Below are positions 1,642 to 54,510 of a stretch of 64,000 nt of DNA, in pieces. The DNA is from Candidatus Aminicenantales bacterium. GTDB taxonomy: Bacteria; Acidobacteriota; Aminicenantia; Aminicenantales; Saccharicenantaceae. The stretch lies in contig JBEKVN010000002.1 of the NCBI GenBank assembly GCA_049513915.1, positions 242 through 64,241 of the forward strand. Direction: 5' to 3'. A program made the position numbers and the translations under genes. The stretch's first letter is position 1; every line of letters starts with the position of its first letter. The notes under the pieces were generated by a model. It was not told where the DNA came from. It did not search any database and saw only the letters and a program-made list of their open reading frames with translations.

Positions 1642-1767
1642 GGTGTCCCCAGTTTATAGCAAAACCCTACGCTGGAGTCAACGTGCGGGTAGACGGGAAT
1701 GGCGGGCGGGGATGTATCAGGCGGGCAGAGACATGAGGGGTTATCCGGCTCGACCGGGACGGCCCTC

Positions 1768-15670: not shown

Positions 15671-15770
15671 TTCTAATTCGGTGACATATAACTAATTACC
15701 GAATTAGAGAGGAATCGTCAAAAGAGTGACAGGCAGAGAGTTTTGGTATTTAGTTATGTGTCACCGAATT
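15664..15770 (+). promoter_or_regulatory. Leader/operator-like region upstream of the BASS transporter with three ACCGAATT/AATTCGGT boxes able to form alternative pairings
   Basis: TAATTCGGT-(15 nt)-ACCGAATTA hairpin at 15666–15697. A third copy TGTCACCGAATTGTGAC at 15757–15773 is complementary to the first AATTCGGTGACA, and GTCAC…GTGAC is itself palindromic. Confidence 0.35.
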
Positions 15771-24931: not shown

Positions 24932-24958
24932 TTGGTCCGACCCCAAATCTGCTATAAT
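24932..24958 (+). promoter_or_regulatory. Possible hrpA promoter built on the repeat box: TTGGTC-N15-TATAAT ending 6 nt before the ATG
   Basis: TATAAT at 24953–24958 and TTGGTC (part of the TTGGTCCGACCCCAA box) at 24932–24937. The spacing is short (15 nt), so this is weak. Confidence 0.25.
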
Positions 24959-24964
24959 GCGGGC

Positions 24965-27900
24965 ATGGACAAGCGGGAGGCGGGGCAGACGACGGCCTCG
25001 GGTCATCTCCGGAAGATCCGCGAGCTTCTTGACCGAGCTATGCTCCGCGATAAAGAACAGGCCGTCCGTGCGCTGAGCGTGCTCCAAAGGCAACACGGGG
25101 GAGGCGCGCGGCCCGTGTCCGAGGGGCTCCTCCGCGACCTGGCCGCGCTCGAGGAACGGCTGGCGGCTTCGGCCGGCGAATGTCAGCGCCGGGCCCGCGC
25201 CCGGCCGCGAGTTTCGTATCCGCGCGAACTCCCCATCACCGCGCGCGCCGGCGAGATCATCGAGGCCATCCGCTCGCCCCGCAATCGGGTCGTCATCATC
25301 TCGGGGGAGACCGGCTGCGGCAAGAGCACCCAGATCCCTAAGATGTGCCTCGAGGCGGGGCGGGGGGTCGCCGGGCTCATCGGCTGCACTCAGCCGCGGC
25401 GCATCGCCGCCGTCACCATCGCCTACCGGATCGCCGAAGAGCTGGGTGAGGAGCTCGGCCGCTCCGTGGGCTACAAGATCCGCTTCCAGGACCGGACCTC
25501 CCGTGACGGCTACGTCAAGATCATGACCGACGGCATTCTGCTCGCCGAAACTCAGGGCGACCGCCGCCTCACGGACTATGACACGATCATCATCGACGAG
25601 GCCCACGAGCGCTCCCTCAACATCGATTTCCTCCTCGGCATCATGCGCCGGCTCCTCGACGACCGGCCCGAGCTCAAGCTGGTCATCACTTCGGCGACCC
25701 TGGATACGGAGAAGTTCTCGCAGGCCTTCCGGAACGCGCCCGTCATCGAGGTCAGCGGTCGGCTCTACCCCGTCGAGCTCGAGTACCGCCCGCCCGCGAA
25801 GGACACGGCCGAAGACAAGGACTACGTGGACCAGGCGGTCGAGGCCGTCGAATACATCCGGTGGGACAAGGCGGCCGGCGACATTCTCGTCTTCATGCCG
25901 ACCGAACAGGACATCCTCGAGACGCGCCGCATCCTCGAGGGGCGTAAATTTCCGGATACGGCGGTCCTGCCGCTCTTCTCGCGCCTGCCGGCGGGGCAGC
26001 AGCGCATGGTCTACAGCGTGAGCCGGCCGAAAATCGTCATCGCCACGAACGTCGCCGAGACTTCGCTTACGATCCCCGGCATCCGCTACGTCGTGGACAC
26101 GGGAGTCGCGCGGATCGCCCAGTACCAGCCGGGGACGCGCATCAACAGCCTGCCGATCAGCCCGATCTCGCGGGCTTCGGCGGACCAGCGCAAGGGGCGC
26201 TGCGGCCGCGTCCGGGAAGGGCTCTGCGTCCGGCTCTACTCGGAAACCGAATACGAATCGCGCGACGAATTCACGTCGCCGGAGATCCTGCGCTCGGACC
26301 TGGCCGAGGTCATCTTGAGGATGATCGACCTGGGGTTGGGTCATCCGCTCGAGTTCCCGTTCATCGACCGGCCCGCGGCCAAAACCGTGCGCGACGGCTA
26401 CGAAACGCTCGTCGAGCTCGGCGCGATTTCCAGAAGGGGGACACAATACTCTGTCCCTGAATATGAGCGGTCGGGAAAAGCGGGACAGAGTATTGTGTCC
26501 CCCTTAAGGATAAATGCGCAAGGCCCCGATTGGGCGCTCACCGACAAGGGCCGGATCATGGCCCGGATGCCCCTGGACCCGCGCGTCTCCCGAATGCTCG
26601 TCGAGGCCGGCCGCGAGAATTGCCTCCCCGAGGTCGCCGTCCTGGCCGCCGCCCTGAGCATCCGCGACCCGCGCGAGCGGCCTCCCGAGCTCGCGTCCCA
26701 GGCCGATGCCGTGCACGCCGCCTTCCGTGACCCGAACAGCGATTTCCTGCTTCTCCTGAACATTTGGAACCGCTACCACGGCGATTTTGAAAAGCTCGGG
26801 ACGGTCACCCAGAAGCGCAAGTTCTGCCACGATCATTTCCTCTCGTTCCCCAGGATGCGCGAGTGGGTCTACCTCTATGACGAGATCCGCTCTGTCCTCT
26901 CCGAACAGCACCAGACGCCGGGCAAAACCAAAGGGGAAGTCGGGCCCAAAAATCCGGAAACAAATATTGTGTCGCCGAAAAATAAATTGAAAGCGGAGGG
27001 CAAGGCGGCCGTCGTGCCCCACGCCGATATCTCGCCCGTCCTTTATGCCGCCATCCATCGCTCTATCCTGGCGGGATTCCTGTCAAATATCGCCGCTCTC
27101 AAAGAAAAGCGCATCTACACCGCGGCCAAGAACCGGGAGGTGACCCTCTGGCCGGGTTCCGTCCTCTTCAGCAAGGCGCCCGCCTGGATCGTGGCCACCG
27201 AGGTCGTCAAGACCTCGCGTCTGTTCGCCCGCCAGGCCGCGCGCATCGACCCCGCCTGGCTCGAGGACCTGGGCGGCTCCCTCTGCAAGCGCTCCTATTA
27301 CGACGCCGCCTGGGACCGCGGCCGTGGCGAGGTCGCGGCCAAGGAGCGGGTCACCCTGTTCGGCCTGGAGATCCTTCGCGACCGGCGCGTTTCCTACGGC
27401 CGGATCAACCCGGCCGAGGCGCATGAGATCTTCGTCATGTCCGGGTTGGTTGAAGGAGAGGTGGACGGTCCGCCCGCCTTCCTCCCGCACAACCTCGGCC
27501 TCCAGCACAAGGTCGAGGCCATGGAGGAAAAGCTCCGCCGCCGCGACATCATGATTCCCGAGGCCGAAATCGCCAAGCTCTATTCGGCCCGCCTGCCCGG
27601 AATTTGCGACATCCGGTCGCTTCTCAAGCTCATCAAGGACCGGGGCGGCGACGATTTCCTGCGCTTCACCGAAGACGACCTCATCCTCAGGCGCCCCGAC
27701 GCCGATACGGTGTCCGCGTTCCCCGACACAGTCGAGGTCGCCGGCCGCCCTTTCAGGGCTGTCTATAAGTTCGCCCCGGGCGAGGACGACGACGGCGTGA
27801 CCCTGAAGGTCCCGGCCTCGATCCTCTCCGCCATTCCCGACGGCCGGCTCGAATGGGGAGTCCCGGGGCAGTACAAGGACAAGATCGCCGCCCTGATCAA

Positions 27901-29332
27901 GGGCCTCCCCAAACGGTACAGGAAGCTCCTTGTCCCGGTGGGGGAGAAGGCTGAGACGATCGCCGCCGAGATGCCGCAGGCGCCGGAGGAGGCGCCGCTC
28001 GCGAAGGCCGTGGCGGAGTTCGTCAGGCGCCGGTTCGGGGCGGACATCCCGGCCCGCGAATGGGCCCTGGCCGAAGTCCCGAAATACCTGAGAATGCGCC
28101 TGGCCGTGACCGACCCCGCGACCGGCCGCGTCATTGACACCGGCCGCGACGTCGAGCTCCTGCGGAAAAAGATCGGCGCGGCGGACGAGGCCCCGTCGAA
28201 GGTCGAATCGCCCGCCTGGCAGGAGGCCCGCCGGAAATGGGAAAAGGCGGGATTGACGTCGTGGGTCTTCGGCGATTTGCCGGCCAAGATCGTTGTCGGG
28301 ACATCCCTCACGGCCTATCCCGCGCTCGCGGTCGAGGGCGGCCAGGCTTCGGTTGAAATCCGCCTTTTTCCGGCGCGGGCCGAGGCCGAGGCGTCTCACC
28401 GACTCGGCGTCCGTTGGCTCCTCATGCTGAAATTCGCCAAAGACCTGGGCTTCGTCAGGCGGTATCACAAGATTCCGGCCGAATATGAGCGTGCGGCGGT
28501 GGCCTTCGGAGGCCGCGACGCCGTGGAGCGGGCCATCGAGAGCGCCCTGGCCCGCGAGGTCTTCGAGCGGGACATCCGCACGGATGCGGATTATAAGGCC
28601 TACGAGGCCGAGGTCGGCCGGACGCTCTTCGAGAAGGGGCATGCCCTGACCCAGACGACGCTCAAGATCCTCGAACTCAACCAGGCCCTGCGGACGGAGC
28701 TCGGGAACGGCCGGCCCGCGACCCAGCGGGGGGCGTCAAGAAGGGGTCAAATCTTCATTCTGCCACTTTCCGGAAAGAACGAGCCCCAGAAAAAGTGGCA
28801 GAATGAAGATTTGACCCCTTCTTATTTGTCGCGCGGCCGCGTCAAAGAGCCCGTCGTCCCCGCTTACTTCGAAGAGATCGCGGGCGACCTGGACGAGCTC
28901 CTGCCCGCGAATTTTCTCGAAGTTTATCCGGTCGACAGGATCATCCGCATCCCGCGCCTCCTCGACGCCTTGAAGATCCGGCTGGGGCGCGCCCGGCTCG
29001 ATCCCGAGAAGGACAAGGCCAAGGCCGCTCAGGTCGAGCCCTTCGAATTCGCGTTATCTCAGTTCGAAGCGGAAACCCCGGGCGCCGGCGCGGGGACACC
29101 AGAATTGGGGACACAATACTCATTTCCGAATTACGGTGGGGGAGCGGGGACCAGAAAAACGGAAATTAGTATTGTGTCCCCGAATTTGGAAAAGCGCCGC
29201 GCGGTCGGGGAGCTCCGCCGCATGATAGAGGAGTTCAAGGTCTCCCTTTTCGCTCCCGAGATCAAGACCGTCTTTCCCATCTCGGCCGTCCGCTTGGCCC
29301 GCAAGATCAAAGAGATCGAGGCGATTGTTTAA
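24965..29332 (+). CDS. hrpA: ATP-dependent RNA helicase HrpA (DEAH-box) carrying several in-frame palindromic insertions
   Basis: Motifs GETGCGKSTQIPK, IIIDEAHERS, SATLD and QRKGRCGR, plus an HrpA-type C-terminal region. The track ORF begins at a TTG inside a repeat (24932); the ATG at 24965 (MDKREAGQ...) is preferred. Total length about 1455 aa, longer than typical HrpA because of the insertions. Confidence 0.9.
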   Translation: MDKREAGQTTASGHLRKIRELLDRAMLRDKEQAVRALSVLQRQHGGGARPVSEGLLRDLAALEERLAASAGECQRRARARPRVSYPRELPITARAGEIIEAIRSPRNRVVIISGETGCGKSTQIPKMCLEAGRGVAGLIGCTQPRRIAAVTIAYRIAEELGEELGRSVGYKIRFQDRTSRDGYVKIMTDGILLAETQGDRRLTDYDTIIIDEAHERSLNIDFLLGIMRRLLDDRPELKLVITSATLDTEKFSQAFRNAPVIEVSGRLYPVELEYRPPAKDTAEDKDYVDQAVEAVEYIRWDKAAGDILVFMPTEQDILETRRILEGRKFPDTAVLPLFSRLPAGQQRMVYSVSRPKIVIATNVAETSLTIPGIRYVVDTGVARIAQYQPGTRINSLPISPISRASADQRKGRCGRVREGLCVRLYSETEYESRDEFTSPEILRSDLAEVILRMIDLGLGHPLEFPFIDRPAAKTVRDGYETLVELGAISRRGTQYSVPEYERSGKAGQSIVSPLRINAQGPDWALTDKGRIMARMPLDPRVSRMLVEAGRENCLPEVAVLAAALSIRDPRERPPELASQADAVHAAFRDPNSDFLLLLNIWNRYHGDFEKLGTVTQKRKFCHDHFLSFPRMREWVYLYDEIRSVLSEQHQTPGKTKGEVGPKNPETNIVSPKNKLKAEGKAAVVPHADISPVLYAAIHRSILAGFLSNIAALKEKRIYTAAKNREVTLWPGSVLFSKAPAWIVATEVVKTSRLFARQAARIDPAWLEDLGGSLCKRSYYDAAWDRGRGEVAAKERVTLFGLEILRDRRVSYGRINPAEAHEIFVMSGLVEGEVDGPPAFLPHNLGLQHKVEAMEEKLRRRDIMIPEAEIAKLYSARLPGICDIRSLLKLIKDRGGDDFLRFTEDDLILRRPDADTVSAFPDTVEVAGRPFRAVYKFAPGEDDDGVTLKVPASILSAIPDGRLEWGVPGQYKDKIAALIKGLPKRYRKLLVPVGEKAETIAAEMPQAPEEAPLAKAVAEFVRRRFGADIPAREWALAEVPKYLRMRLAVTDPATGRVIDTGRDVELLRKKIGAADEAPSKVESPAWQEARRKWEKAGLTSWVFGDLPAKIVVGTSLTAYPALAVEGGQASVEIRLFPARAEAEASHRLGVRWLLMLKFAKDLGFVRRYHKIPAEYERAAVAFGGRDAVERAIESALAREVFERDIRTDADYKAYEAEVGRTLFEKGHALTQTTLKILELNQALRTELGNGRPATQRGASRRGQIFILPLSGKNEPQKKWQNEDLTPSYLSRGRVKEPVVPAYFEEIAGDLDELLPANFLEVYPVDRIIRIPRLLDALKIRLGRARLDPEKDKAKAAQVEPFEFALSQFEAETPGAGAGTPELGTQYSFPNYGGGAGTRKTEISIVSPNLEKRRAVGELRRMIEEFKVSLFAPEIKTVFPISAVRLARKIKEIEAIV
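26436..26503. repeat. Perfect 22-bp inverted repeat (GGGGGACACAATACTCTGTCCC … GGGACAGAGTATTGTGTCCCCC, 24-nt loop) inside the hrpA coding frame
   Basis: Read directly at 26436–26457 and 26482–26503. Encodes …SRRGTQYSVPEYERSGKAGQSIVSP… between conserved HrpA blocks (…LVELGAI | LTDKGRIMARMPLDPRVSRML…). Confidence 0.9.
26956..26993. repeat. Degenerate solo arm of the same GGGACAC-type element inside hrpA
   Basis: GGAAACAAATATTGTGTCGCCGAAAAATAAATTGAAAG resembles the right arm of the 29102–29187 element (CGGAAATTAGTATTGTGTCCCCGAATTTGGAAAAG). No partner arm is visible. Confidence 0.45.
28738..28823. repeat. Perfect 32-bp inverted repeat (AAGAAGGGGTCAAATCTTCATTCTGCCACTTT … AAAGTGGCAGAATGAAGATTTGACCCCTTCTT, 22-nt loop) inside the hrpA coding frame
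   Basis: Read directly. Encodes …RGQIFILPLSGKNEPQKKWQNEDLTPSYL… in frame. Confidence 0.9.
29102..29187. repeat. Near-perfect inverted repeat (GAATTGGGGACACAATACTCATTTCCG … CGGAAATTAGTATTGTGTCCCCGAATTT) inside the hrpA coding frame, sharing the GGGACAC core with the RAYT REPs
   Basis: Arms with 1–2 mismatches and a ~31-nt loop. Encodes …ELGTQYSFPNYGGGAGTRKTEISIVSPNLEK… in frame. The first 15 nt are identical to the 26436 element. Confidence 0.85.
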
Positions 29333-38180: not shown

Positions 38181-38241
38181 AGAAGGGGTCGTATCTACGC
38201 ATTACGCATTTTCCGCGTAATGCGTAGATACGACCCCTTCT
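38181..38241. repeat. Intergenic perfect 27-bp inverted repeat with AGAAGGGGTC…GACCCCTTCT termini (same terminal motif as the 28738–28823 hrpA element)
   Basis: AGAAGGGGTCGTATCTACGCATTACGC attttcc GCGTAATGCGTAGATACGACCCCTTCT. Lies between the vapB start region and the stop of the glycine-zipper gene. Confidence 0.85.
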
Positions 38242-39097: not shown

Positions 39098-41383
39098 ATG
39101 AGCACGCGCACGGTTGAATCGAAGGCCCCCGCCGGCCAATTGCCGGAGAGCCGGGAACGATTCTCTTCCATCGTTGAAAATTCGCAAGCGGCGATTTTCA
39201 TCATGGACCAGGCCTTCCGGATCCTCTACGTGAACGGCGAGGCCGCCCGAATCTCGGGATTTTCCCGTGAGGAGATGGCCGGCCGGGATTTTCTGATATT
39301 CGTCGACGCCAAGAGCCTGCCGCTCGTGAGGTACTATCAGAACTGCCGGCAGGGCGGAGAGTATGCCCCTTCAAGTTATGAATTCGTTTTCGTCCGAAGA
39401 GACGGGGAGAGAAGGTTCGTAGAATGCAGCGCCTCCCTGATCAAGAATTCGAAGGGAATGTCCGAAACCGTGCTGCAGCTCCTGGACATCACGGACCGGC
39501 TGCAGGCGGGGGAAGACTTGAAGAGCTCGCATGAGATCTTCAAGATCATTTTCGAATACGCGCCCGATAGCATCTTTCTGATCGACCGGAAAGGGATATT
39601 CATCAACGGCAACCGAATGGTGGAAGAATTGACCGGCTATTCGAGGAAGGAAATCATCGGCAATAGCTTCCTGACGTTGGGGCTTCTGCCCCGCGGTCAA
39701 ATTGTCAAAGCGACCGGACTTCTGGCCAAAAGCATCCTGGGCAAGGCCACCGGCCCGGACGGATTGGTTCTGAGAAGAAAAGACGGGTCCGAGTTTCCCG
39801 TTGAAATCAGCACCTATCCCGTCAAAGTCAACGGCCAAACCATCGCTCTAGGGATCGCCCGGGATATAACGGAGCGTAAGCGATCCGAGGAAAACCTGGC
39901 CAAACACCAGGAAAACCTCTGGAACCTCATCAAGGAGCGAACCAAGGAGCTCGAGGAGGCCAAGCAGGCCGCAGATGCGGCCAACCGGGCCAAGAGCGCC
40001 TTTCTCGCCAATATGTCCCACGAGATCCGGACGCCGATGAACGCCATCCTCGGATTCACCCAGCTCATGCAGCGCGACGAAACGCTGGCCGCCCACCAGA
40101 GGCGGCACCTGGACGTCATCAACAGGAGCGGCGAGCACCTGCTGGCCTTGATTACCGACATCCTGGAAATGTCGAAGATCGAGGCCGGCCGGATCACCTT
40201 GAACCCGACGACATTCAGCCTCCAGTCCCTGCTCACCGACTTGGAGATGATATTCCGGCCGCCTGCCGACGCGAAGAATCTCCATTTCAAGGTGGAATGC
40301 CCGGACGACATGCCTCGCTATGTGGAGGGGGACGAAGGCAAACTGCGCCAGATCCTCATCAACCTGCTGGGGAACGCGGTGAAATTCACCCAGGCGGGCG
40401 GCATCGTCTTGAGGGCGCGGCTGGACCCCGAGGGTCCGGACAAGCTGAGGCTCAGCGCGGAAGTCGAGGACTCGGGTCCGGGCATTCCGGAGAAGGAGCA
40501 GGAAAGCCTGTTCACGCCTTTTCAACAAACCCAGAACGGGCGCCGGATGGGGACGGGTACGGGCCTGGGGCTGGCCATCTGCAGGGAATTTGTCCATCTG
40601 ATGGGAGGGGACATCACGGTCAGCAGCCAGCCCGGGAAGGGGAGCCTGTTCAAGTTCCATGTCCTACTGGGAGAGGGGGAGATTGCCGCGGCCGAAAAAA
40701 AATCGGAATCCTACAGGATCAAGAGCCTGCAGCCCGGACAACCAGCCTGTCGAATCATGATCGTCGATGACGAAGACATCAACGGCGCCCTCGTCGCTCA
40801 GATGCTCGGCAGCATCGGGTTCGATACGGGCCGGGCCGCCAACGGCAAGGAAGCCGTTGAGCGGTTCACGGCCTGGCATCCCCACTTGATCCTCATGGAC
40901 ATGCGTTTGCCGGTGATGGATGGGTGTGAAGCCATCCGCCGCATCAGGGCCGGCCCGGGGGGGGCGGACGTCAAGATCATCAGCGTGACCGCCAGCGCCT
41001 TCGAAGAGAACCGCAGGGAAGCGCTCGAAGCCGGCGCCGACGACTTTCTGGCCAAGCCTTTCCGCGAGGCCGTGCTTTTCGAGAAGGTCAAAAAGCTGTT
41101 GGGCATCGAGTATGTGCTCTTGGAGGACACGACGCCCGAGAAAAACCCGCCCCGCGCGGCCGCCACAAGCGCGGTAACGGCGGAAGTCCTGGCCTCTCTA
41201 CCCAGGGATTTCATCCGGAAGATGCGCGAAGCTGTCATCCAGGCGGACTATGACCGGATGATGGGGTTGATCGGCAGCGTGGAAGGCCACAGCGCCCCCG
41301 TCGCCCAGGTGCTCCGGGGCCTCGTCGAACGTTTCGAATACAAGGAACTTTTGGATCTATTGCAAAAGCGAAGGAGCAACTGA
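39098..41383 (+). CDS. Hybrid sensor histidine kinase / response regulator (PAS–PAS–HisKA–HATPase–REC)
   Basis: Two PAS-like segments. H-box SHEIRTPMNAILGF. N/G boxes LINLLGNAVKFT and GTGLGLAIC. Receiver MIVDDEDING...ILMDMRLPVMDG. Confidence 0.85.
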   Translation: MSTRTVESKAPAGQLPESRERFSSIVENSQAAIFIMDQAFRILYVNGEAARISGFSREEMAGRDFLIFVDAKSLPLVRYYQNCRQGGEYAPSSYEFVFVRRDGERRFVECSASLIKNSKGMSETVLQLLDITDRLQAGEDLKSSHEIFKIIFEYAPDSIFLIDRKGIFINGNRMVEELTGYSRKEIIGNSFLTLGLLPRGQIVKATGLLAKSILGKATGPDGLVLRRKDGSEFPVEISTYPVKVNGQTIALGIARDITERKRSEENLAKHQENLWNLIKERTKELEEAKQAADAANRAKSAFLANMSHEIRTPMNAILGFTQLMQRDETLAAHQRRHLDVINRSGEHLLALITDILEMSKIEAGRITLNPTTFSLQSLLTDLEMIFRPPADAKNLHFKVECPDDMPRYVEGDEGKLRQILINLLGNAVKFTQAGGIVLRARLDPEGPDKLRLSAEVEDSGPGIPEKEQESLFTPFQQTQNGRRMGTGTGLGLAICREFVHLMGGDITVSSQPGKGSLFKFHVLLGEGEIAAAEKKSESYRIKSLQPGQPACRIMIVDDEDINGALVAQMLGSIGFDTGRAANGKEAVERFTAWHPHLILMDMRLPVMDGCEAIRRIRAGPGGADVKIISVTASAFEENRREALEAGADDFLAKPFREAVLFEKVKKLLGIEYVLLEDTTPEKNPPRAAATSAVTAEVLASLPRDFIRKMREAVIQADYDRMMGLIGSVEGHSAPVAQVLRGLVERFEYKELLDLLQKRRSN

Positions 41384-42480
41384 TGAAAATAACCCTCACT
41401 TATCCGGGCAAGCCGGATATTCTCGTCGTGGACGATACGGCCTCGAACCTCCAGCTTCTGACGAACATGCTGAAGGAACGGGGGTACAAAACGCGGCCGG
41501 TGCCCAGCGGGATGCAGGCCCTTCAGGCCGCCTTGAGCGACCCCCCGGACCTGATCCTGCTCGACGTCAACATGCCGCAGATGAATGGGTTCGAGGTGTG
41601 CCAAAGCCTGAAAGCCGACGAAAAGTTGAAGGACATCCCGGTCATCTTCATCAGCGCTCTCAACGAGGTGCTGGACAAGGTCAAGGCCTTCTCGGTCGGC
41701 GGTGTGGACTACATCACCAAGCCGTTCCAGTTCGACGAAGTCCAGGCCCGGGTGGATACGCACTTGAAGCTCCGGCACCTTCAGAAGGAACTTGAGAAGC
41801 ACAACCAGCAACTGGGAAAACTCGTTCAGGCCCAAGTGAAGAAGATCTCGGACACGCAAATGGCGTTGATATTCGCCCTGGCCAAGCTGGCGGAATCGCG
41901 GGATGACGATTCGGGGATGCACCTCGAACGTGTCCAGGCCTTCTGCAAAACGCTGGCCGAAGGGCTGGCCCGGCGCCCGCATTTCGGCGGGCAGGTCGAC
42001 GGGAAATTCATCGAGAACATTTTTCACGCGAGCCCGCTCCACGACATCGGCAAGGTCGCCATCCCGGATCGCATCATCCTCAAACCCGGCAAACTAACCC
42101 CTGAGGAATTCGAGGTGATGAAAACCCACGCCAAGATGGGGGCCGAAAAGTTGGAGGCCGTCCAGCGAAGATTCCCCGGAAACGCACTGCTCGATATGGG
42201 AATCGCCATCGCCAGGTTCCATCATGAAAAGTGGAGCGGGGAAGGTTATCCCCAGGGCTTGGCGGGCGAGGCCATCCCGCTTTGCGCGCGTATCATGGCG
42301 GTCGTGGACGTTTATGAGACCTTGCGGGCGAAGCGCTGCTACAAGCCCGCCTTCACTCATGAAGAGAGCGCGGAGATCATCATCAATTCGAGCGGGACGC
42401 ACTTCGATCCCGAGATCGTCAAGGTCTTTGTCGAACTCAAGGAAGAATTCAGAGCAATACGCGACGGGATGAAGGATTAG
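41383..42480 (+). CDS. Response regulator with HD-GYP phosphodiesterase output domain
   Basis: REC (ILVVDDTASNLQLL...LILLDVNMPQMNG) followed by HD-GYP motifs LHDIGKVAIPD and HHEKWSGEGYPQGL. Start overlaps the stop of the hybrid kinase. Confidence 0.85.
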   Translation: MKITLTYPGKPDILVVDDTASNLQLLTNMLKERGYKTRPVPSGMQALQAALSDPPDLILLDVNMPQMNGFEVCQSLKADEKLKDIPVIFISALNEVLDKVKAFSVGGVDYITKPFQFDEVQARVDTHLKLRHLQKELEKHNQQLGKLVQAQVKKISDTQMALIFALAKLAESRDDDSGMHLERVQAFCKTLAEGLARRPHFGGQVDGKFIENIFHASPLHDIGKVAIPDRIILKPGKLTPEEFEVMKTHAKMGAEKLEAVQRRFPGNALLDMGIAIARFHHEKWSGEGYPQGLAGEAIPLCARIMAVVDVYETLRAKRCYKPAFTHEESAEIIINSSGTHFDPEIVKVFVELKEEFRAIRDGMKD

Positions 42481-42892
42481 CGGCGGGGGGGCTCTTCTCC
42501 GTGGCAGTATTTGTCACGCAGGCGCGGGAATCGACCAGCGAAGCGCAAAGATTTGGCGAATCTGGGCGGAACAAATCTACGCTGTCCCCATTATTTCTCT
42601 TGACATTTGAGGTTTGGATAATTTAGGATTCAAATAACCTTTCTACTTAGAAAGGTCAAGGAAGGGTTGTTTAGTTGGCGGAACCGATCGGCACCGAAGA
42701 AGGGGCAGCACCAATCCTCTCTCTTTTTTATTGTGAAGTGACCTCTGTGCATTGCCCTTTATGTCCCCGACCCTGCATTATCTAAATTTCGGTGCCGGCC
42801 TGCCGCGGTTCTTATGAGCATCTGCGGTAGATGATGTGTGCGTGTTTTCGCCGTCCGCCTGCCTTCAGGCGCCCAAGGGCGGTAGCCTGTAA

Positions 42893-43040
42893 GGAAATTC
42901 GGGACACGGAAATTCGGGACATGTAACAATTCTCTGGAATTGGTACGTGTCCCAGGAATTTCCGTACGTGTCCCAGGAATTTCCGTACGTGTCCCAAGAA
43001 TTCCCGATCTCTTGAACCGGTGCGTGTCACCAGATTTCGT
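42893..43040. repeat. REP array: two inverted copies plus three to four tandem direct copies of a ~21-bp unit (core GGGACAC / GTGTCCC) immediately upstream of the RAYT gene
   Basis: Inverted units GGAAATTCGGGACACG and GAAATTCGGGACATG at 42893–42923. Tandem direct units TACGTGTCCCAGGAATTTCCG ×2 and TACGTGTCCCAAGAATTCCCG at 42945–43007. Degenerate fourth copy TGCGTGTCACCAGATTTCG at 43021–43039. Confidence 0.8.
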
Positions 43041-43052
43041 TATTGAGATAAA

Positions 43053-43733
43053 ATGGCCCGTCTCGCCCGTTCCATCCTCGTTGGCTACCCGCACCAGGTT
43101 ACCCAGCGCGGGAACTACGACCAGAATATCTTCCAGGAGGACGCGGACTACCGGCGCTACCTGGAATGGCTTTGCGAGTCCTCGACCCGGTACTCAACGG
43201 CCATTTGGGCTTATTGCCTGATGCCGAACCATGTCCATTACGTCTGCGTTCCCAGTGCCGCGGACGGGCTGTCCCGCACGTTCAATACCCTTCACATGAA
43301 GTACGCCCAACACGTCCACAGGAAAAAAGGCGTGACGGGCCACCTCTGGCGGGGGAGGTTCCTCTCGTGCATCCTCGACAATCCGAGCGTTTTCGAGGAG
43401 GTCAGGTTTATCGAAAACAATCCCATCAGGATGGGCCTCGTCGAGCGGCCCGAGGATTATCCCTGGTCAAGCGCCAGGAGCCACATCCTAGGCACACCTG
43501 ATCCAGCCCTCGCGGAAGGCTGCTTCCTGAAGGGTGAGGTCCTGGACTGGCGCGCCTATTTGGCGTCGGCACAGAATGAGGGTGTCGTTCGGCGGACCTG
43601 GGAGAGGCTGAAGACGGGGCGGCCTGCCGGGGATGAGGGATTCGTGCGCGGCCTCGAGAAGCTGACCGGCCGCCGGCTCGCGGCGTTGCCGAGGGGAAGG
43701 CCGAGGAAAAACACGGTCGCAGTGATAAAATGA
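43053..43733 (+). mobile_element. IS200/IS605-family Y1 (HUH) transposase of the REP-associated tyrosine transposase (RAYT) type
   Basis: HUH motif in YCLMPNHVHYVCVP. C-terminal IENNPIRMGLVERPEDYPWSSA contains the catalytic Tyr context Y-x-WSS seen in TnpA_REP/RAYT proteins. N-terminal GYPHQVTQRGN. Flanked by its own REP array. Confidence 0.75.
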
Positions 43734-43788
43734 CAACGTTGACGATTGGAAATCATAGCTTTTGGGAACACCTGAAAAGGAGCAGTTG

Positions 43789-44742
43789 ATGAAACGAGCT
43801 TTGGTTTGCGGGGCGGGCGGTTTCATAGGCAGCCATCTCGTCAAGAAATTGAAAAAAGAAGGCTATTGGGTTCGCGGCGTTGATATAAAGAACCCGGAAT
43901 TCTCGCCCACGGCTGCGGATGAATTCATGCTCCTAGACCTTCGGGAAAAGCCTAATGCCGAGAAGGCTCTATCTGGTCCTCTTGATGAAGTTTACCAACT
44001 GGCCGCTGATATGGGGGGCATGGGCTTCATCCATTCAGCGGAGACCGAAATTATGCGCAACAGCGTTCTTATCAATATCAACATGACTCACGCTGCCGCT
44101 GAGGCAAAAATCCCCCGGTATTTCTTTTCTTCTTCCGTTTGCATTTATCGCGATATGCAGCCCGAAGAACCTGAAATGTCCGAGGAAGAAGCCTATCCCG
44201 CTCTCCCCGATAATGAATACGGCTGGGAAAAGCTTTATTCCGAGAGAATGGCCTTTGCCTATGGGCGTCGCTACGGCATGCAGATCCGGATAGCGCGGTT
44301 TCAAAACTGCTACGGAGCGGAAGGCACATGGAGGGGCGGTCGCGAGAAGGCCCCAGCCGCGATCTGCCGCAAGGTCGCCCAAGCCAAAGATGGCGGGACA
44401 ATCGAAGCCTGGGGAGACGGAACGGCTATCCGTTCCTACACCTATATCGATGATATGTTGGAGGGCATTTATCTCCTCATGCATTCGGACCTTAAGGTTC
44501 CCGTGAATATTGGCTGCCCTCAATATGTCTCGGTCAAAGAGCTGATCGACACAGTTGCCCAAGTGGCCGGCAAAAAGGTGCTAATTAAGTGGATTAAGGG
44601 GCCTGTCGGAGTCCAATCCCGCAATTTCAGCAATGCCAAGATCTATTCACTAGGCTGGAAGTCCAAATATTCCCTGAAAGACGGAATCGCTCTCACCTAC
44701 CCCTGGGTTGCAGAACAAGCCAACAAAGCGAAAAAAGGGTAA
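43789..44742 (+). CDS. GDP-mannose 3,5-epimerase (GME)-like NAD-dependent epimerase
   Basis: [18 protein letters not shown]..., [11 protein letters not shown] and [26 protein letters not shown] closely mirror plant/bacterial GME signatures (ADMGGMGFI; [17 protein letters not shown]). AGGAG RBS before the ATG at 43789. Confidence 0.7.
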
Positions 44743-44746
44743 GAAT

Positions 44747-45790
44747 ATGCCCGACAGAAAAAAAGCCCTGATTACCGGAATTACTGGCCAGGACGGCTCC
44801 TATCTCGCGGAGTTCCTGCTTTCAAAAGGATACGAGGTCCATGGAATCGTCCGGCGGTCCAGCTCATTCAACCGGAGCCGGATCGACCATCTCTACGTAG
44901 ATCCCCATCTTCCCGATGCCCGGTTTTTTCTCCACTATGGAGACCTTGCCGACTCCGAGCAGCTCACGGAAATTATCTATAACATTAAGCCCAATGAAAT
45001 ATATCACCTGGCCTCCCAGAGCCATGTCCGTGTCAGCTTTGATCTGTCCGAATACACGGGCGATATCACCGGCCTGGGAACCACGCGCCTATTGGAAGCC
45101 GTGCGAAGGAGTGGGATTCAGACCAAGTTCTATCAGGCGTCGAGCAGTGAAATGTTCGGCAGCGCCCCGTCCCCACAAAATGAAAATACGCCTTTCCAGC
45201 CCCAAAGCCCATACGCCGCGGCAAAGGTCTACGCCTATTGGATGGTCAGGAACTACCGCGAGGGTTACAAGCTATTTGCCTGCAACGGAATCCTCTTCAA
45301 CCATGAATCGCCGAGAAGAGGGGAGACCTTCGTCACCAGAAAAATCACGAGGGGCATAGCGCAAATCCTAGCCAATAAAGAAAAGACCATCTATTTGGGC
45401 AACCTGAGTGCCAGAAGAGACTGGGGTTACGCCCCGGAGTATGTCGAGGTCATGTGGCAGATGCTCCAGCAGGATACGCCTGACGACTATGTCATCGGGA
45501 CGGGAGAGGGGCACTCCGTCGACGAATTCTTAACCGAGGCCTTCAAGTATGTCAATCTCGACCGCCATAAACATGTCGTCATCGAGCCGGCATATTTCCG
45601 GCCTACGGAAGTCCAGGAACTCAAAGCCGACTCAACCAAAGCCAGAAAAAACCTGAACTGGATTCCCAAAATCAAATTCAAAGACCTCATCAAAATCATG
45701 GTTGACGCCGATCTCGAAATGCTGGGGCTCGATCCGCCAGGGCACGGGAAAAAAATCATCCTGGATAAGGGTTTTCAGTGGAAGCTGTAA
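44747..45790 (+). CDS. gmd: GDP-mannose 4,6-dehydratase
   Basis: [46 protein letters not shown]...[13 protein letters not shown] is the canonical Gmd N-terminus. [10 protein letters not shown] active-site Tyr. Confidence 0.85.
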
Positions 45791-45809
45791 GGACCTTACC
45801 CTCGACAAG

Positions 45810-46781
45810 ATGAGCGAAAAAAAAAGGGTTCTCATTACCGGCGCGACCGGCTTTGTCGGCGGGTACCTTGTTCATGCGCTTGAGGAAGAGGGCCCATCTG
45901 AGTTTGAGGTTTTTGGGACGGCTTTTCCCCAGGCCCCCCCGCCTTCCGAACCCCGGATTTATTTCCTGGACCTGCGCTCGGAAAAAGACGTGATAAAGCT
46001 TGTGGGCGAGGTCCAACCCGATTGGGTATTCCATCTCGCGGCCGTTTCCAACGTGCGCAGATCTTGGCAAGTGAGGAGCGAAACGATTGAAACGAACGTC
46101 CTCGGCACCCATAACCTTTTGGAAGCGGTCAGGCAGCTCGCGCCGGCGGCCAGAATGCTTTTCATCAGCTCCTCGGATGTCTACGGCTTCGGGGCGTCTC
46201 CGACTGAAGTCCTGAATGAAGATGCCCCGCTCCAGATTGTCAGCCCCTACGCTTATTCAAAGGCCGCCGGCGAGATGTTATGCGGTTTTTATGAAAAGAT
46301 TGAGAATATCGACATCGTTATCGCTCGGCCTTTCCCCCATACGGGCCCGGGGCAGACTGAGGACTTTGTCTGCTCTGACTGGGCTCGCCAGGTTGTCCAG
46401 ATTGAAAGAGGCGACAGCGCGCCCATACTTAAAGTCGGGAACCTCGAAGGCCGGCGCGATTTCTGCGACGTCCGGGACGTAGTCAGGGCATATGTACTCC
46501 TGCTAAAAAATGGCCGTCGAGGCGAGATCTATAACGTTTGTTCGCGTATGGCCATAGCGCTTAGGGAGGTTCTAGACTTTCTTATCAGAGAAGCTGCCGG
46601 GAATACGCCTATCTCCGTCGAGGTTGACGTAGCTAAGCTCAGGAAGACCGATGTACATTTCCTTATCGGCAGCCATCGAAAAATTTCAGAAGAAACCGGT
46701 TGGTCGCCTCGGATTTCGATTGACCAAACTCTCCGTGATGTCCTCGCTTTCTGGCGGCAAAGATTAGGGGACAGGTTATAG
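45810..46781 (+). CDS. rmd: GDP-4-dehydro-6-deoxy-D-mannose reductase (Rmd-like short-chain dehydrogenase)
   Basis: VLITGATGFVGGYLVHAL. ...ISSSDVYG...SPYAYSKAAGEML...ARPFPHTGPGQTEDFVCSDWARQVVQIE...VGNLEGRRDFCDVRDVVRAYVLLL...GEIYNVCS follows the Rmd pattern (ARPFNHIGPGQ...RDF.DV.DV..AY). Confidence 0.6.
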   Translation: MSEKKRVLITGATGFVGGYLVHALEEEGPSEFEVFGTAFPQAPPPSEPRIYFLDLRSEKDVIKLVGEVQPDWVFHLAAVSNVRRSWQVRSETIETNVLGTHNLLEAVRQLAPAARMLFISSSDVYGFGASPTEVLNEDAPLQIVSPYAYSKAAGEMLCGFYEKIENIDIVIARPFPHTGPGQTEDFVCSDWARQVVQIERGDSAPILKVGNLEGRRDFCDVRDVVRAYVLLLKNGRRGEIYNVCSRMAIALREVLDFLIREAAGNTPISVEVDVAKLRKTDVHFLIGSHRKISEETGWSPRISIDQTLRDVLAFWRQRLGDRL

Positions 46782-46973
46782 ACCAGCTCCATTTCATCAG
46801 ATAACAAAATGGACTTCTTCCCTACGGCAATCCCAGAGGTTGGCATCCGCTGGCCAATCCCCCCAGGCGTGGCGCCCATTCTTTCATCGAAAGATGCATC
46901 CGGGGCTCGGCTGGAAAACGCTGACGTTTACGATTGAGTCGCCCTCTCGGTTAAAGGCGGCTAATAAGCTCAA

Positions 46974-48059
46974 ATGCGAAAAATCCTAGTTACAGGCGGG
47001 GCCGGTTTTATCGGCTCGAATTTCATTCACTATCTACAGCGCTTTGAATCGGATGCATTCATTATCAATCTGGATGCCCTCACTTATGCTGCTAATCTGG
47101 AAAATCTACGTAATTTGCCGGTGCCAAACCGCCACCGCTTTATCGAGGGAGATATCTGTAATCGTGAACTACTGGATCGCATATTGGGAGAGAATGAGAT
47201 CAGTACGATCATCCATTTTGCCGCAGAATCGCACGTCGATCGATCCATTCACGGTCCTGCGAAATTTATCCAGACCAATATTGTGGGGACATTTACTTTA
47301 CTCGATGCCGCCCGTAAAGCCTGGCTTCAGGAAAAAACAGTCCCCGTTGAGCAGGCGCGTTTTCACCATATCTCCACGGATGAGGTTTATGGTTCCCTCG
47401 GCCCCGGCGACGCCGCTTTCACGGAGGCCATGCCATACGCACCCAATTCCCCCTATGCCGCCTCTAAAGCGTCAAGCGATCATCTCGTTCGCGCCTATTT
47501 TCATACTTACGGCCTCCCGGTGACGATCACAAATTGCTCGAATAATTATGGCCCTTACCAGTTCCCCGAAAAATTGATTCCCTTGATAATCTTTAACGCA
47601 TTGAACGGGCGGCCCCTACCTATTTACGGAGACGGAATGCAGGTGCGGGATTGGCTCTATGTCGATGATCACTGTGAGGCAATTTGGCAAGTGGTCCGGC
47701 GAGGCCGATCCGGTGAAACTTATAATGTCGGAGGGAACAATCAACCTCCGAATATCCAAGTCATTAAAGATATCTGCGCTATTCTGGATGATCTTGTGCC
47801 GGATTCCGGCCACGCCCCGCACGACCAGTTATGCTGCTTTGTAGCCGATCGTCCCGGACACGACCGGCGGTACGCGATGAATCTCGAAAAAATACGCCAA
47901 GAGTTAGGCTGGCACCCGAAAGAAAAATTAAAGAGCGGTCTCCTAAAAACCGTGCAATGGTACCTGAACAATCCAGAATGGGTGAAGACGATTGCCGATA
48001 GGCCTGAATATGAAGCTTGGCTGCTTAAGAATTATCAGGCAAGAGGGGTGAAAAAATGA
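46974..48059 (+). CDS. rfbB: dTDP-glucose 4,6-dehydratase
   Basis: [21 protein letters not shown]...[15 protein letters not shown] is a canonical RmlB. Confidence 0.85.
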
Positions 48060-48934: not shown

Positions 48935-49048
48935 CTTGGATTGGAAGGCTGGACCTTTTTATCGTTTTAGGTCCCAGCTTATATCCAGTAGAGCTCAAAA
49001 TGGATCCTCTCCTTTACGTAACTGATTATATATATTGGTGCCTTAAAT

Positions 49049-50488
49049 ATGATGCTTAGGCAAAAAACAATAAGCGGACTCAAGTGGAGTTTTCTTGATA
49101 GCTTTGCTAATCAAGGTTCTCAGTTTATCATTGGAATCATCCTTGCAAGGTTGCTTGTCCCGAGAGATTTCGGTCTCATAGGGATGCTGACCTTTTTTAT
49201 TGCGATATCCCAATCCTTCATCGACAGTGGCTTCAGTCAAGCTCTGATCAGAAAACAGGATTGCAGGCAGGTCGACTTCAACACGGCGTTTTTGTTCAAT
49301 CTTTTGGTCGGGATTATTTTTTACTTAGTTCTGTTTTTCAGTGCTGAATTCATAGCTCGCTTTTTCGGCGAGCCTCAGTTGTTTCAATTGATCAGGGTAT
49401 TGGGCTTAATTCTTTTGATAAATGCATTCGGATTGATTCAGAGAACGCTCCTTACTAAAGAAATCAATTTTAAGCTGCAAACCAAGATATCCCTTATCGC
49501 ATCGTTCATATCGGGAGCTATCGGCATAGGAATGGCGGTTAACGGATTCGGCGTTTGGAGCCTTGCCTATAAAACAATCGCCCAGCAATTAGTCATAACT
49601 TTATTATTTTGGCTCTGGAATAAGTGGAAACCGACGTTGGCTTTCAGTTTTCACGCATTCAAGGATTTGTTTCGGTTCGGCTCAAAACTGCTCGTATCCG
49701 GAATCGTCGATACAACCTACCGGAATATCTATTACCTAATAATTGGCAAGTATTTCTCTGCAGCAGATTTAGGTTATTATGCCAAAGCAGATGAGTTCAA
49801 TAAAATTCCGTCGGAAAATCTTAGCGGAATCATAGGCAGGGTCAGCTATCCAACCCTATCATGCATTCAAGATGACCCCGCAAGGCTAAAATCGGCCTAT
49901 AAGAAACTTATCCAAACTACTGTTTATATTACCTTTATTCTGATGATTGGGCTCGCTGCCACCGCGAAAAAAATAATCCTAGTATTGATCGGAGAACGGT
50001 GGCTGCAGGCTGTGCCGTATCTTCAACTTCTATGCTTTGTCGGTCTGATGTACCCGCTACACGCTTTGAATCTAAACATGTTGATGGTAAAGGGAAGATC
50101 GGATCTGTTTCTGAGGCTTGAGGTAATAAAAAAAATCCTGGCGGTTCCGGTAATCGTTATCGGGATTCTCTTTGGAATAAAAATTATGATCGTCGGAATG
50201 ATAATAAATTCCTTGCTTGCATACTATCTAAACAGCTATTGGTCAGGGAAGCTAATAGGGTATTCGGTTCGAGAGCAAATCGCCGATATTTATTCGCCTT
50301 TTGCCCTGGCGGTAGTAATGGGTATATTAACCTGGCTCGTTGGAACGGTCATAAAAAGCGGGCCTGTGGTTGTTCTAATATCGCAATTGAGTATAGGAGG
50401 TATCGTAATCCTAGTTATTTCGGAAATCACTAAATTGAAACCGTATATTGAATTGAAAAGCATCGTCCTGGAAAGCATAAGAAGATGA
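49049..50488 (+). CDS. wzx: Wzx-type oligosaccharide-unit flippase (MOP superfamily polysaccharide biosynthesis protein)
   Basis: About 12 TM helices. N-terminal KWSFLDSFANQGSQFIIGIILARLLVPRDFGLIGM is typical of Wzx/RfbX proteins. Confidence 0.65.
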   Translation: MMLRQKTISGLKWSFLDSFANQGSQFIIGIILARLLVPRDFGLIGMLTFFIAISQSFIDSGFSQALIRKQDCRQVDFNTAFLFNLLVGIIFYLVLFFSAEFIARFFGEPQLFQLIRVLGLILLINAFGLIQRTLLTKEINFKLQTKISLIASFISGAIGIGMAVNGFGVWSLAYKTIAQQLVITLLFWLWNKWKPTLAFSFHAFKDLFRFGSKLLVSGIVDTTYRNIYYLIIGKYFSAADLGYYAKADEFNKIPSENLSGIIGRVSYPTLSCIQDDPARLKSAYKKLIQTTVYITFILMIGLAATAKKIILVLIGERWLQAVPYLQLLCFVGLMYPLHALNLNMLMVKGRSDLFLRLEVIKKILAVPVIVIGILFGIKIMIVGMIINSLLAYYLNSYWSGKLIGYSVREQIADIYSPFALAVVMGILTWLVGTVIKSGPVVVLISQLSIGGIVILVISEITKLKPYIELKSIVLESIRR

Positions 50489-51630: not shown

Positions 51631-51640
51631 AAGTTTTATT

Positions 51641-51668
51641 GCATATGCGATAAGCATATGGTTCTTGT
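51641..51668 (+). terminator. Candidate intrinsic terminator after the aminotransferase gene (GCATATGC-GATAA-GCATATG followed by GTTCTTGT)
   Basis: 7-bp perfect stem with a 5-nt loop, followed by a T-rich tract, in a 128-bp AT-rich gap. Confidence 0.3.
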
Positions 51669-51758
51669 GCTAAGGACGGTCCCAGCCTGAGGAATGTATA
51701 CAGGCATACCTTTGAAGTACATTAAATAAAGAATTAATAACCTTTTAAACTATCTTCG

Positions 51759-53981: not shown

Positions 53982-54510
53982 ATTGGACCAGGGAGTCAGG
54001 GCAAAGGATATTATTGCGTATTAGTCTGCCATATCTTAACAAGGATATATGGTAATGTGAGCGGCGTACGAAAATAGTATGCTCTAACTTCAAAGTGCTG
54101 GGTTGTTCCAGAAGCGGTCAAGGGTGCAAATACGATTCCCAAGATTGTGCCATAAATATAGATTCTTGATTCTTTAATTAGCATTTCTCCAGGAGGCACT
54201 TGGTTTAGGTGATATCTATAGCTTAGCATCTGGCGTCCTTTTTTAGTAAGCGATTGTGGAACACATGGGCCTAAGATTGAGGTGCTGATACCCGGCAGGA
54301 ATGATGTGCATTTTCCAGTGAATGATGCAAGCGCATTGGGTGATTGATTTGTGCGGTTGGTGTCTAATCTGGAGGTCTTAGCAAGGATGGGGCCAAACTT
54401 TTACGGAATCTAGCTATAACCTTCAGCATATGGCAGACGTCTTTCTACAAGCTTTCGACTATGCCCTTCGAGCCAGATCTGCCGATATCAGAAAAAAGAT
54501 TCGTGTTTGA

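Follow-up and report, generated by a model that had tools for sequence, protein, structure and literature searches.

What does a transposase-like gene do at the head of a polysaccharide cluster, and did it spread the short palindromes found around it? The question is raised by a stretch of 64,000 nucleotides (nt) from a Candidatus Aminicenantales bacterium (contig JBEKVN010000002.1, positions 242 to 64,241), hereafter the window, in which a gene for a protein of 226 amino acids (aa) lies immediately downstream of a block of repeats. From the letters alone, it had originally been predicted to code for a REP-associated tyrosine transposase (RAYT; REP, repetitive extragenic palindrome) that possesses its own REP array and mobilises GGGACAC palindromes, including in-frame copies within hrpA. 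Our analysis favours, with moderate confidence, a different explanation: the open reading frame (ORF) would be a domesticated, non-transposing descendant of a TIRYT (RAYT Group 1/subclass 2.1) in which the catalytic tyrosine is not conserved and the right terminal inverted repeat (TIR) has been lost, it would now head an operon, and the palindromic doublets in hrpA and at 15.7 kb would not be its products.

Part of the original prediction was borne out. The HUH motif (PNHVHYV) is present, and Pfam Y1_Tnp (PF01797), one of the profiles suggested as a check, matches residues 19-122 with 33.2 bits (cut-off 23), as it also matches all 140 relatives scanned. By contrast, the score with the NCBIfam RAYT equivalog NF047646 is 63.5 bits, below the cut-off of 80. 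When the profile of the 140 homologues was compared with known structures, TnpA_REP (4ER8) was retrieved with an E of 3e-9 and TnpA of the ISDra2/IS608 type with about 1e-4, and an AlphaFold2 (AF2) model built from a diverse alignment of 132 sequences showed the TnpA-type fold with a predicted local distance difference test (pLDDT) score of 90.5 (an earlier run with 27 close homologues, whose pLDDT was 48, was discarded). As judged from sequence and model, the assignment of the fold to the Y1/HUH, TnpA_REP type is secure, and TnpA_REP is the closest member of the superfamily. H60 and H62 are invariant across 85 as well as across 140 homologues, and HUH, Asn123 and Pro124 are invariant or nearly so. 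Of the TIRYT signatures (NHVH, W[EQ], Y[IV]xLNP, an SS motif and about 238 aa), the protein matches a part, namely NHVH, PWSS and length, whereas its W motif is WR and its Y motif FIENNP, where relatives at 40-57% identity read WQ and RYVELNP. Its C-terminal residues 141-205 form five short helices in the AF2 model. The gene is single-copy within the window, and the closest species-representative genomes are Aminicenantes metagenome-assembled genomes (MAGs), at 65% identity for this protein.

The main departure from the original prediction concerns the nucleophile. In class-2 Y1 proteins, the catalytic tyrosine sits in a Y---NP motif (PMC6006769). Pairwise and profile alignments place Phe119 of the window protein (VRFIENNP) opposite Tyr115 of TnpA_REP (4ER8) and Tyr132 of ISDra2 TnpA, and the tyrosine of DYPWSS, which had been taken as typical tyrosine context, belongs to the "SS motif" region and is non-catalytic. 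Of the two catalytic elements singled out beforehand for alignment, HUH is present and the tyrosine is absent across the clade to which the window protein belongs; such an absence had been named in advance as grounds for refuting the prediction. In an alignment of 121 sequences, made up of the query and the 120 database proteins nearest to it (63-90% identity), residue 119 is F 102 times, Y 13 times and H 6 times. Species-representative genomes supplied 85 full-length homologues; 75 of these have Y there, F and H being limited to the nearest relatives of the window protein. In a neighbour-joining (NJ) tree of 277 non-identical sequences, a single clade of 131 members contains every F and H (111 F, 7 H and 13 Y), and Y is found in 145 of the 146 sequences outside it; Fitch parsimony places F at the root of this clade and requires no fewer than 13 changes of state between F, Y and H. 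The loss of the nucleophile appears, then, as a property of the whole clade and not as an accident.

The rest of the protein has been maintained. More than 130 distinct sequences keep a full-length ORF (217-237 aa), and 66 columns are invariant among 27 clade members. Because dN/dS between clade members is 0.12-0.24 and the invariance of HUH, Asn123 and Pro124 coexists with F/Y/H switching, the gene is under purifying selection, except for the hydroxyl of the aromatic residue 119. Engineered Y-to-F Y1 transposases serve as proteins that bind but do not cut, and work on ISDra2 Y132F reportedly showed that such mutants bind without cutting. The Y132F mutant of ISDra2 TnpA has been crystallised on the left-end recognition and cleavage site (PDB 2XO6).

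The origin of the clade is indicated by its Tyr-bearing relatives, which at 40-57% identity occur in Syntrophales, Planctomycetota, Alphaproteobacteria, Omnitrophota and others and resemble TIRtrons. TIRtrons consist of a RAYT-like gene between TIRs that share the consensus GGGGWSAS (Di Nocera et al. 2013, PMC3733652; PMC6006769), and Quentin et al. 2018 provisionally equated them with subclass 2.1, that is, with RAYT Group 1 of Bertels et al. 2017 (PMC6006769, PMC5581495). The nearest relatives outside the clade are TIR-flanked genes, which affiliate it phylogenetically with this group: both TIRs are present in 86 of 120 Tyr-bearing loci, the left core lying about 54-58 nt 5′ of the ATG against a TTGACA -35 box and the right TIR 8-17 nt past the stop codon, with a consensus close to AATTnCG-GGGACA-[GC]nnTAC-TTAATT. 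The right-TIR core, found in 98 of the 120 Tyr-bearing loci, occurs in none of 19 clade loci, and in the window the interval 43734-43788 holds no TIR units and no downstream end structure. Tandem arrays of units upstream of the gene are also seen in Tyr-bearing loci (L037, L072, L079, L046, L035 and L084), and in four others (L065, L080, L040 and L082) dispersed doublets share the variable 6-nt segment of the TIRs of the resident gene. In L010-L022, L029, L068 and others, the left TIR abuts the TTGACA -35 box and the -10 box ends about 6-10 nt 5′ of the ATG; Tyr-bearing TIRtron genes look leaderless, with a promoter that overlaps the TIR, and are probably autoregulated.

Published surveys of TIRYTs and RAYTs describe the tyrosine as conserved in all members (PMC3733652; PMC6006769; PMC5581495), and Quentin et al. 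kept only sequences with both HuH and Y motifs (PMC6006769). Clades such as this one will have escaped any survey that required the Y motif to be intact. In the searchable literature, we found no description of a Tyr-less RAYT/TIRYT clade, of catalytically inactive Y1 proteins or of a link between RAYT/IS200-like genes and polysaccharide loci.

The cis elements of the clade depart from those of TIRtrons as well. Upstream of the window gene, TTGACA-18-TAGGAT is the sole promoter-like site in 42400-43900, and the TIR-like motif beside it (Table 1) is the fifth-best match in the window to a TIR hidden Markov model (HMM) built from 97 TIRs, all of them from other genomes. A CTGTCCC(N8-16)TTGAC block recurs in 16 of 21 clade loci, with the almost invariant form CGCTGTCCC(C/T)ATTnnTTnC(C)TTGACA followed by the -10 box. 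This block appears to be a TIR core set against the -35 box, as in TIRtrons but inverted. In two deep-branching clade loci from Aminicenantes MAGs (L023, at 9960-9997, and L024), an extra promoter-type TIR motif, CCGCTGTCCCTATTTT, lies 13 nt 5′ of the start codon.

Instead of the near-leaderless start of TIRtron genes, clade genes have a predicted leader of about 100-490 nt. The window leader matches those of L002 (E 6e-42) and L005 (E 1e-34) by nhmmer, and the sequence GGCGGTAGC is found in 19 of 21 clade loci as against none of 122 Tyr-bearing loci. In most loci, a nested GC-rich 3′ hairpin ending in GGCGGTAGC was predicted separately; the 5′ hairpin shows compensatory changes between loci, and G-U pairs are confined to the sense strand. 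Promoter and leader blocks are kept across proteins that are only about 50% identical. The leader is a candidate new RNA motif for polysaccharide operons. The clade-specific promoter and leader were observed in the window (42585-42892) and in L002, L005, L086, L088, L092, L096, L006, L007, L009, L098, L174, L176 and L177; the leader carries a GCGGCTGATGA-like (k-turn-like) block and the invariant hairpin end GGCGGTAGC(C), and is absent from the 122 Tyr-bearing relatives. Rfam returned nothing relevant for the leader (E<=10) or for the whole window (gathering thresholds), and RNAalifold, applied to a 3′ leader block in whose alignment two rows are offset, gave 4 consensus pairs and no double-sided change. 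Two candidates were discarded: an Rfam miRNA match, considered a chance hit (18.5 bits against a cut-off of 90), and a terminator-like site at 42790-42805, which does not exceed shuffle expectation.

The repeats that separate this leader from the start codon had been described largely correctly; they comprise two units of 15 nt and three of 21 nt in opposite orientations plus a fourth, degenerate copy, with a 20-nt spacer between the pair and the triplet. A search with the 21-nt unit gives 3 matches where 0.21 are expected. The two left units pair with two right units into a single long hairpin, whose minimum free energy in kcal/mol is -67 for RNA (z -5.8) and -40.6 for DNA (z -7.2), and no shuffle was as stable. 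Because both arms of the central hairpin carry the TIR architecture (AATTC-GGGACA-6 nt-AATT), it is a TIR doublet; its core, GGGACATGTAACAATTCTCTKGAATTGGTACGTGTCCC, is kept in L002 and L092, and its matches to the TIR HMM are weak (E 1.9-2.9, with E 2-5 for the array units). The extra 15-nt and 21-nt units are tandem duplications of the outer halves of this doublet, and the supposed REP array is an arm-amplified TIR doublet in the 5′ untranslated region (UTR), between the conserved leader and the start codon, and not an array of GTAG-type REPs. The proposed tie between the GGGACAC repeats and the protein family holds in that they are a cis element typical of the family; they are, however, TIR-type instead of GTAG REPs and stand on one side of the gene only. 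Likewise, the expected further copies of the array unit (GGAAATTCGGGACAC) were not found anywhere in the window, whereas its GGGACAC core is enriched there, with 15 occurrences against 6.7 expected and none of 100 shuffles reaching 15.

This layout is not universal in the clade. In the simplest loci (L006, L066, L095, L096, L176 and L177), GGCGGTAGC lies 17-24 nt 5′ of the ATG, and in the remaining ones this interval contains an insert, usually a hairpin with the family core: a GAAATCGGTGACATG...CGTGTCACCWGATTTC hairpin in L005, L086 and L088, GGGACATGTCCC in L008, a two-plus-one array in L098, and a hairpin of the window type in L002 and L092. In L086 (4908-5003) and L088, the 12 nt with which the gene opens (ATGGCCCGCCTA / ATGGCTCGT...) stand on either side of the 5′-UTR doublet, which may have been inserted just within the ancestral start codon, the duplicated start being kept; this may represent an insertion scar or a target duplication. 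The 15-nt half-TIR duplication is also present at an hrpA doublet (29093/29108) and in L037, L056 and L070. In all these cases (29093-29114 and 42893-42922 in the window), the outer half-TIR (AATTC-GGGGACA) is duplicated in tandem with a 15-nt period and the duplications stop right past GGGACA(C/G), endpoints that may mark the cleavage/joining point of active TIRYTs.

As for the palindromes in hrpA, the ORF (24932-29332) encodes DEAD, Helicase_C, HA2, OB and DUF3418 domains and contains three of them, at 26429-26510, 28738-28823 and 29099-29189, palindromes with GGGGACAC among them. The palindrome with GGGACA arms that had been reported is confirmed as that at 29099-29189. In the TIR HMM ranking, its arms are followed by those at 26429-26510, the promoter motif and the arms at 15675-15770, the array units being weaker; 14 of the 15 best matches in the window are these palindromes, the promoter motif or array units. 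The doublets at 29099-29189, at 26429-26510 and at 15.7 kb are canonical TIR doublets, similar to miniature inverted-repeat transposable elements (MITEs) or REPINs. Their variable segment is CAATAC, as opposed to TGTAAC/CGTACC in the resident array, and the hrpA arm CAGAATT-GGGGACACAATACTCATTT compares with the Omnitrophota TIR of L037, CAGAATTCCGGGGACACAATACTTAATT. The 29099-29189 doublet encodes GTQYSFPNYG...ISIVSP (GGG ACA CAA TAC ... ATT GTG TCC CCG; HrpA residues ~1390-1419). HrpA orthologues as distant as about 50% identity carry a diverged version of this peptide in the corresponding place, P0123 and P0129 being the two that lack it. The doublet is therefore an ancient in-frame insert that has been tolerated, and no recent product of the resident gene. 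The proposal that the window transposase mobilised the in-frame hrpA inserts is left unsupported, since the doublet is ancient, the dispersed doublets match foreign TIRs better than they do the resident array and the nucleophile is replaced by Phe119.

A second palindrome family, with AGAAGGGGTC ends, is represented at 28738-28823 in hrpA and at 38181-38241 between genes, with perfect arms of 32 and 27 nt. The hrpA copy looks window-specific when compared with HrpA orthologues. The second family reads GGGGTC, as against GGGGWSAS in the TIR family. A copy of GGGGACAC at 1641-1657 (- strand), directly 5′ of the start codon of a LysE-family gene (1018-1641, - strand), is attributed to chance: it is single and partnerless, and its TIR HMM E is 0.43.

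The genomic context completes the picture. In 12 of 16 distinct clade loci, a gene of the Epimerase, GDP_Man_Dehyd, Polysacc_synt, DegT, Glycos_transf or Wzy type lies directly downstream, and in the clade the next gene is mostly 8-90 nt away on the same strand, while glycan gene content varies by locus. The gene order of the window, an epimerase, Gmd and another epimerase, recurs in L086, L088 and L092; L007 and L094, the latter also counted among the loci that keep this order, have an epimerase directly downstream. Other contexts include Wzx and Wzy (L005), Polysacc_synt_2, DegT and NTP_transferase (L174), Wzx and GT4 (L176), Epimerase_2, GT1 and Wzy_C (L177), DegT (L008) and Polysacc_synt (L098); an rve_3 fragment was found 3′ of the homologue in L002. 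Clade members that retain the tyrosine (P0029, P0088 and P0091) have a polysaccharide context too. The downstream neighbour shares the orientation of the gene in 13 of 14 loci with a non-Tyr catalytic position versus 51 of 103 Tyr-bearing loci; the neighbours of Tyr-bearing genes (51 on the + and 52 on the - strand) are random in orientation and function, with 115 unrelated Pfam families among 103 neighbours, and no polysaccharide family is among the 25 commonest. In the window itself, 55 nt separate the gene from the one that follows, and prediction gave no + strand terminator between them.

Table 1. Features of the window discussed in the text.
Feature	Coordinates	Strand	Sequence or content	Basis or remark
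Promoter module	42585..42629	+	TIR-like CGCTGTCCCC; TTGACA 42600-42605; 18-nt spacer; TAGGAT 42624-42629	sigma70-type prediction
Predicted 5′ leader, ~417 nt	42636..43052	+	CCTTTC..GAAAGG 5′ hairpin; GCGGTAGATGA block; 3′ nested hairpin ending GGCGGTAGCC (42878-42887)	leader start inferred
Two direct 15-nt half-TIR units	42893..42922	+	GGAAATTCGGGACA(C/T)	repeat finding
Central TIR doublet (hairpin)	42908..42963	.	GGAAATTCGGGACATGTAACAATTC / GAATTGGTACGTGTCCCAGGAATTTCC	fold predictions
Three tandem 21-nt units, right-arm copies	42943..43005	+	GTACGTGTCCCAGGAATTTCC	identity 100, 100, 90%; opposite orientation to 15-nt units
Fourth, degenerate right-arm copy	43023..43039	+	CGTGTCACCAGATTTCG	identical to L005/L086 hairpin right arm
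Y1/HUH (TnpA_REP-like) protein, 226 aa	43053..43733	+	H60-V-H62 = HUH; Asn123-Pro124 retained; catalytic-Tyr position = Phe119	
Start of nucleotide-sugar/polysaccharide cluster	43789..48059	+	epimerase 43789-44742; GDP-mannose 4,6-dehydratase 44747-45790; more epimerases/dehydratases	Pfam
Canonical TIR doublet in hrpA, in frame	29099..29189	.	arms CCAGAATTGGGGACACAATACTCATTTCCG / CGGAAATTAGTATTGTGTCCCCGAATTTGG	TIR HMM, arms E 8e-5 and 9e-4, best in window
Second hrpA TIR doublet	26429..26510	.	GGGGACACAATACTC arms	TIR HMM
Intergenic TIR doublet, GGTGACA variant	15675..15770	.	AATTCGGTGACATATAACTAATT	between ORFs 14573-15670 and 15799-17100

The history that we propose for the clade, in which the tyrosine nucleophile would have ceased to be conserved (it is Phe in the window), runs as follows. 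The right terminal repeat would have been lost, the ancestral left TIR and its promoter would have been kept with the addition of a long structured leader, and the gene would have become fixed in a promoter-proximal position in variable polysaccharide-biosynthesis operons. By means of an intact HUH/metal site, the protein would bind GGGACA-type TIRs, be they DNA hairpins, duplex DNA or RNA copies, but would leave them uncut. Acting on the TIR next to the promoter, and on the UTR doublet in the loci that have one, it would control its own mRNA as well as the polysaccharide operon that follows. The palindromic doublets of hrpA and of the 15.7-kb site would be old, non-autonomous members of the same TIR element family, and the 226-aa protein would not have mobilised them. 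A role as a non-catalytic regulator is likely, as suggested by context and conservation. Far more tentatively, and as an idea that is rather unlikely to hold, we suggest that the whole clade was exapted as an operon-specific regulator of polysaccharide (O-antigen/exopolysaccharide) loci in Acidobacteriota/Aminicenantes-like bacteria. Its dead HUH site would recognise a TIR-derived hairpin, either in DNA left single-stranded within the transcription bubble or in the leader RNA as it is being made, and, jointly with a hitherto undescribed structured leader that ends in GGCGGUAGCC, it would control read-through into the long glycan operon.

Several observations weigh against, or limit, the explanation favoured here. 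HUH and Asn123 are still invariant, which could mean residual chemistry through another nucleophile or water, and the tyrosine is kept in 13 of the 131 clade members, so that part of the clade could be active. The NJ tree is distance-based and has short internal branches, which makes the count of switches at position 119 a rough one. TIR-like hairpins occur in the 5′ UTR of about 11 of 19 clade loci and are, hence, not essential to the function of the clade. No Pfam helix-turn-helix (HTH) match (E<=0.01) was obtained for the C-terminal 80 residues in any of the 140 members, and the HTH-like domain published for subclass 2.1 (Bac_DnaA_C, HTH_23, HTH_28) was not reproduced by Pfam in these homologues. 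Finally, all window-level counts refer to 64 kb of the genome.

A first rival is an active RAYT, which would recognise the array at its flank and spread the GGGACAC palindromes, those in frame within hrpA among them. In its favour, the protein has a Y1_Tnp domain with HUH and folds like TnpA_REP, a family-specific cis element stands beside the gene and is dispersed in the window, the dispersed doublets of the Tyr-bearing loci L065, L080, L040 and L082 do match their resident TIRs in the variable segment, and histidine or another residue might stand in as nucleophile. Nevertheless, we consider this explanation highly improbable, given that most clade members have F or H at position 119, that the RAYT equivalog score falls short, that the repeats are one-sided and none of 19 clade loci has a right TIR, that the window holds the array unit at this one place only, that the variable segments of array and dispersed doublets disagree, that the hrpA doublet is common to orthologues at about 50% identity and that the gene occupies a fixed syntenic position at polysaccharide loci. 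If the protein no longer transposes, it might be just a decaying remnant that hitch-hikes at the edge of low-GC, exchanged polysaccharide islands, with repeats that are the junk of old insertions. Remnants of insertion sequences (ISs) do often border O-antigen and capsule loci, and the drop in GC across the region, the rve_3 fragment of L002 and the variable hairpin content of the 5′ UTRs would agree with such a relic. It is very unlikely all the same: purifying selection and synteny contradict a pure relic, as the gene shows low dN/dS, full-length ORFs and invariant columns, its promoter and leader blocks persist across strongly diverged proteins, and its orientation and position stay constant though the downstream glycan genes differ.

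Alternatively, the leader and hairpin array could be a cis-acting RNA regulator (riboswitch, attenuator or processive antitermination) independent of the protein, whose role would lie elsewhere, for instance in genome maintenance at the replication fork. The compensatory changes of the 5′ hairpin, the nested 3′ hairpin, the sense-strand G-U pairs, the absence of the leader blocks from all 122 Tyr-bearing relatives and the great stability of the array hairpin as RNA are in its favour. On the other hand, the leader always accompanies the gene, the promoter retains the TIR motif of the family and the UTR hairpins bear the family core GGGACA/GGTGACA and are not arbitrary stems, and the RNAalifold and Rfam results lend it nothing. 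We regard full independence from the protein as rather unlikely, while a leader RNA that complements the role of the protein is plausible. A domesticated TIRYT descendant with a likely regulatory role is, thus, the explanation that we retain.

Comparison with known systems helps to delimit this descendant. With TIRYTs/TIRtrons (probably subclass 2.1, RAYT Group 1) the window protein shares 40-57% identity, a length of about 220-240 aa and the NHVH, WQ/WR, ..xxxNP and PWSS "SS" motifs, and its locus shares the GGGGWSAS core (GGGGACAC, GGGACAG), a TIR against the promoter and dispersed TIR doublets. The clade differs from them in having F/H/Y instead of an invariant tyrosine, no right TIR, a conserved leader of 150-520 nt, and a fixed first position and orientation at polysaccharide clusters. 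By sequence, the window protein descends from TIRYT/RAYT Group 1 and yet lacks what marks active members, namely the tyrosine, two TIRs and the RAYT equivalog score. To our knowledge, REP mobilisation is not established for Group 1/TIRYT genes. Compared with TnpA_REP/RAYT of E. coli (4ER8; NF047646) and its REP/BIME or REPIN sequences, the protein lacks the nucleophile, scores 63.5 against the required 80 and extends some 80 aa further at its C terminus, and the repeats are one-sided, with no GTAG-tagged REP hairpin. Unlike the IS200/IS605 TnpA genes (IS608, ISDra2), the window gene is no insertion sequence, as it is without identical copies or two-sided left-end/right-end subterminal hairpins and has a syntenic context; its motif is that of class 2 (NP), not class 1 (Q). 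The hrpA doublets resemble the palindromic elements of Rickettsia and intragenic REPs in being short palindromes carried in frame by a conserved coding gene, but they belong to another repeat family, being TIR doublets of the TIRYT type.

RfaH with ops/JUMPstart, UpxY in Bacteroides and the EAR RNA in Bacillus are operon-specific regulators of polysaccharide loci. The likeness would reside in a conserved head (promoter, long leader and small protein) placed before variable glycan genes; there is no kinship of sequence or fold, the window protein being HUH-derived and not NusG-like, and antitermination is here an analogy alone. If the exaptation outlined above were true, a transposase would here have given rise to a counterpart, in function, of RfaH/ops or UpxY. 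What role RAYT-like genes play in their hosts has been a standing question ever since they were seen to be "domesticated" transposases, present in one copy and inherited vertically. In this clade, the nucleophile appears dispensable while purifying selection acts on the remainder of the protein, in a constant promoter, leader and polysaccharide context, properties that point to a concrete candidate for a host function: nucleic-acid binding and regulation of surface-glycan operons. Additionally, the in-frame TIR doublets retained in HrpA across deep lineages are documented here.

Some observations concern the surroundings of the gene. The GC break that had been placed exactly at the gene was not found: GC content declines gradually, from about 0.62 up to 41 kb, through 0.54-0.57 at 42-44 kb, to 0.37-0.43, which is reached only at 49-54 kb. 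The deep trough at 49000-54000, which is where the break lies instead, falls within the polysaccharide cluster and is typical of horizontally exchanged wzx/wzy/glycosyltransferase segments. Directly 5′ of the promoter, at 39098-42480, a hybrid PAS histidine kinase/receiver and a receiver-HD-GYP protein are encoded, a pair that is not kept in other clade loci, where the upstream neighbour is often a divergent fucose pyrophosphorylase/GHMP kinase gene.

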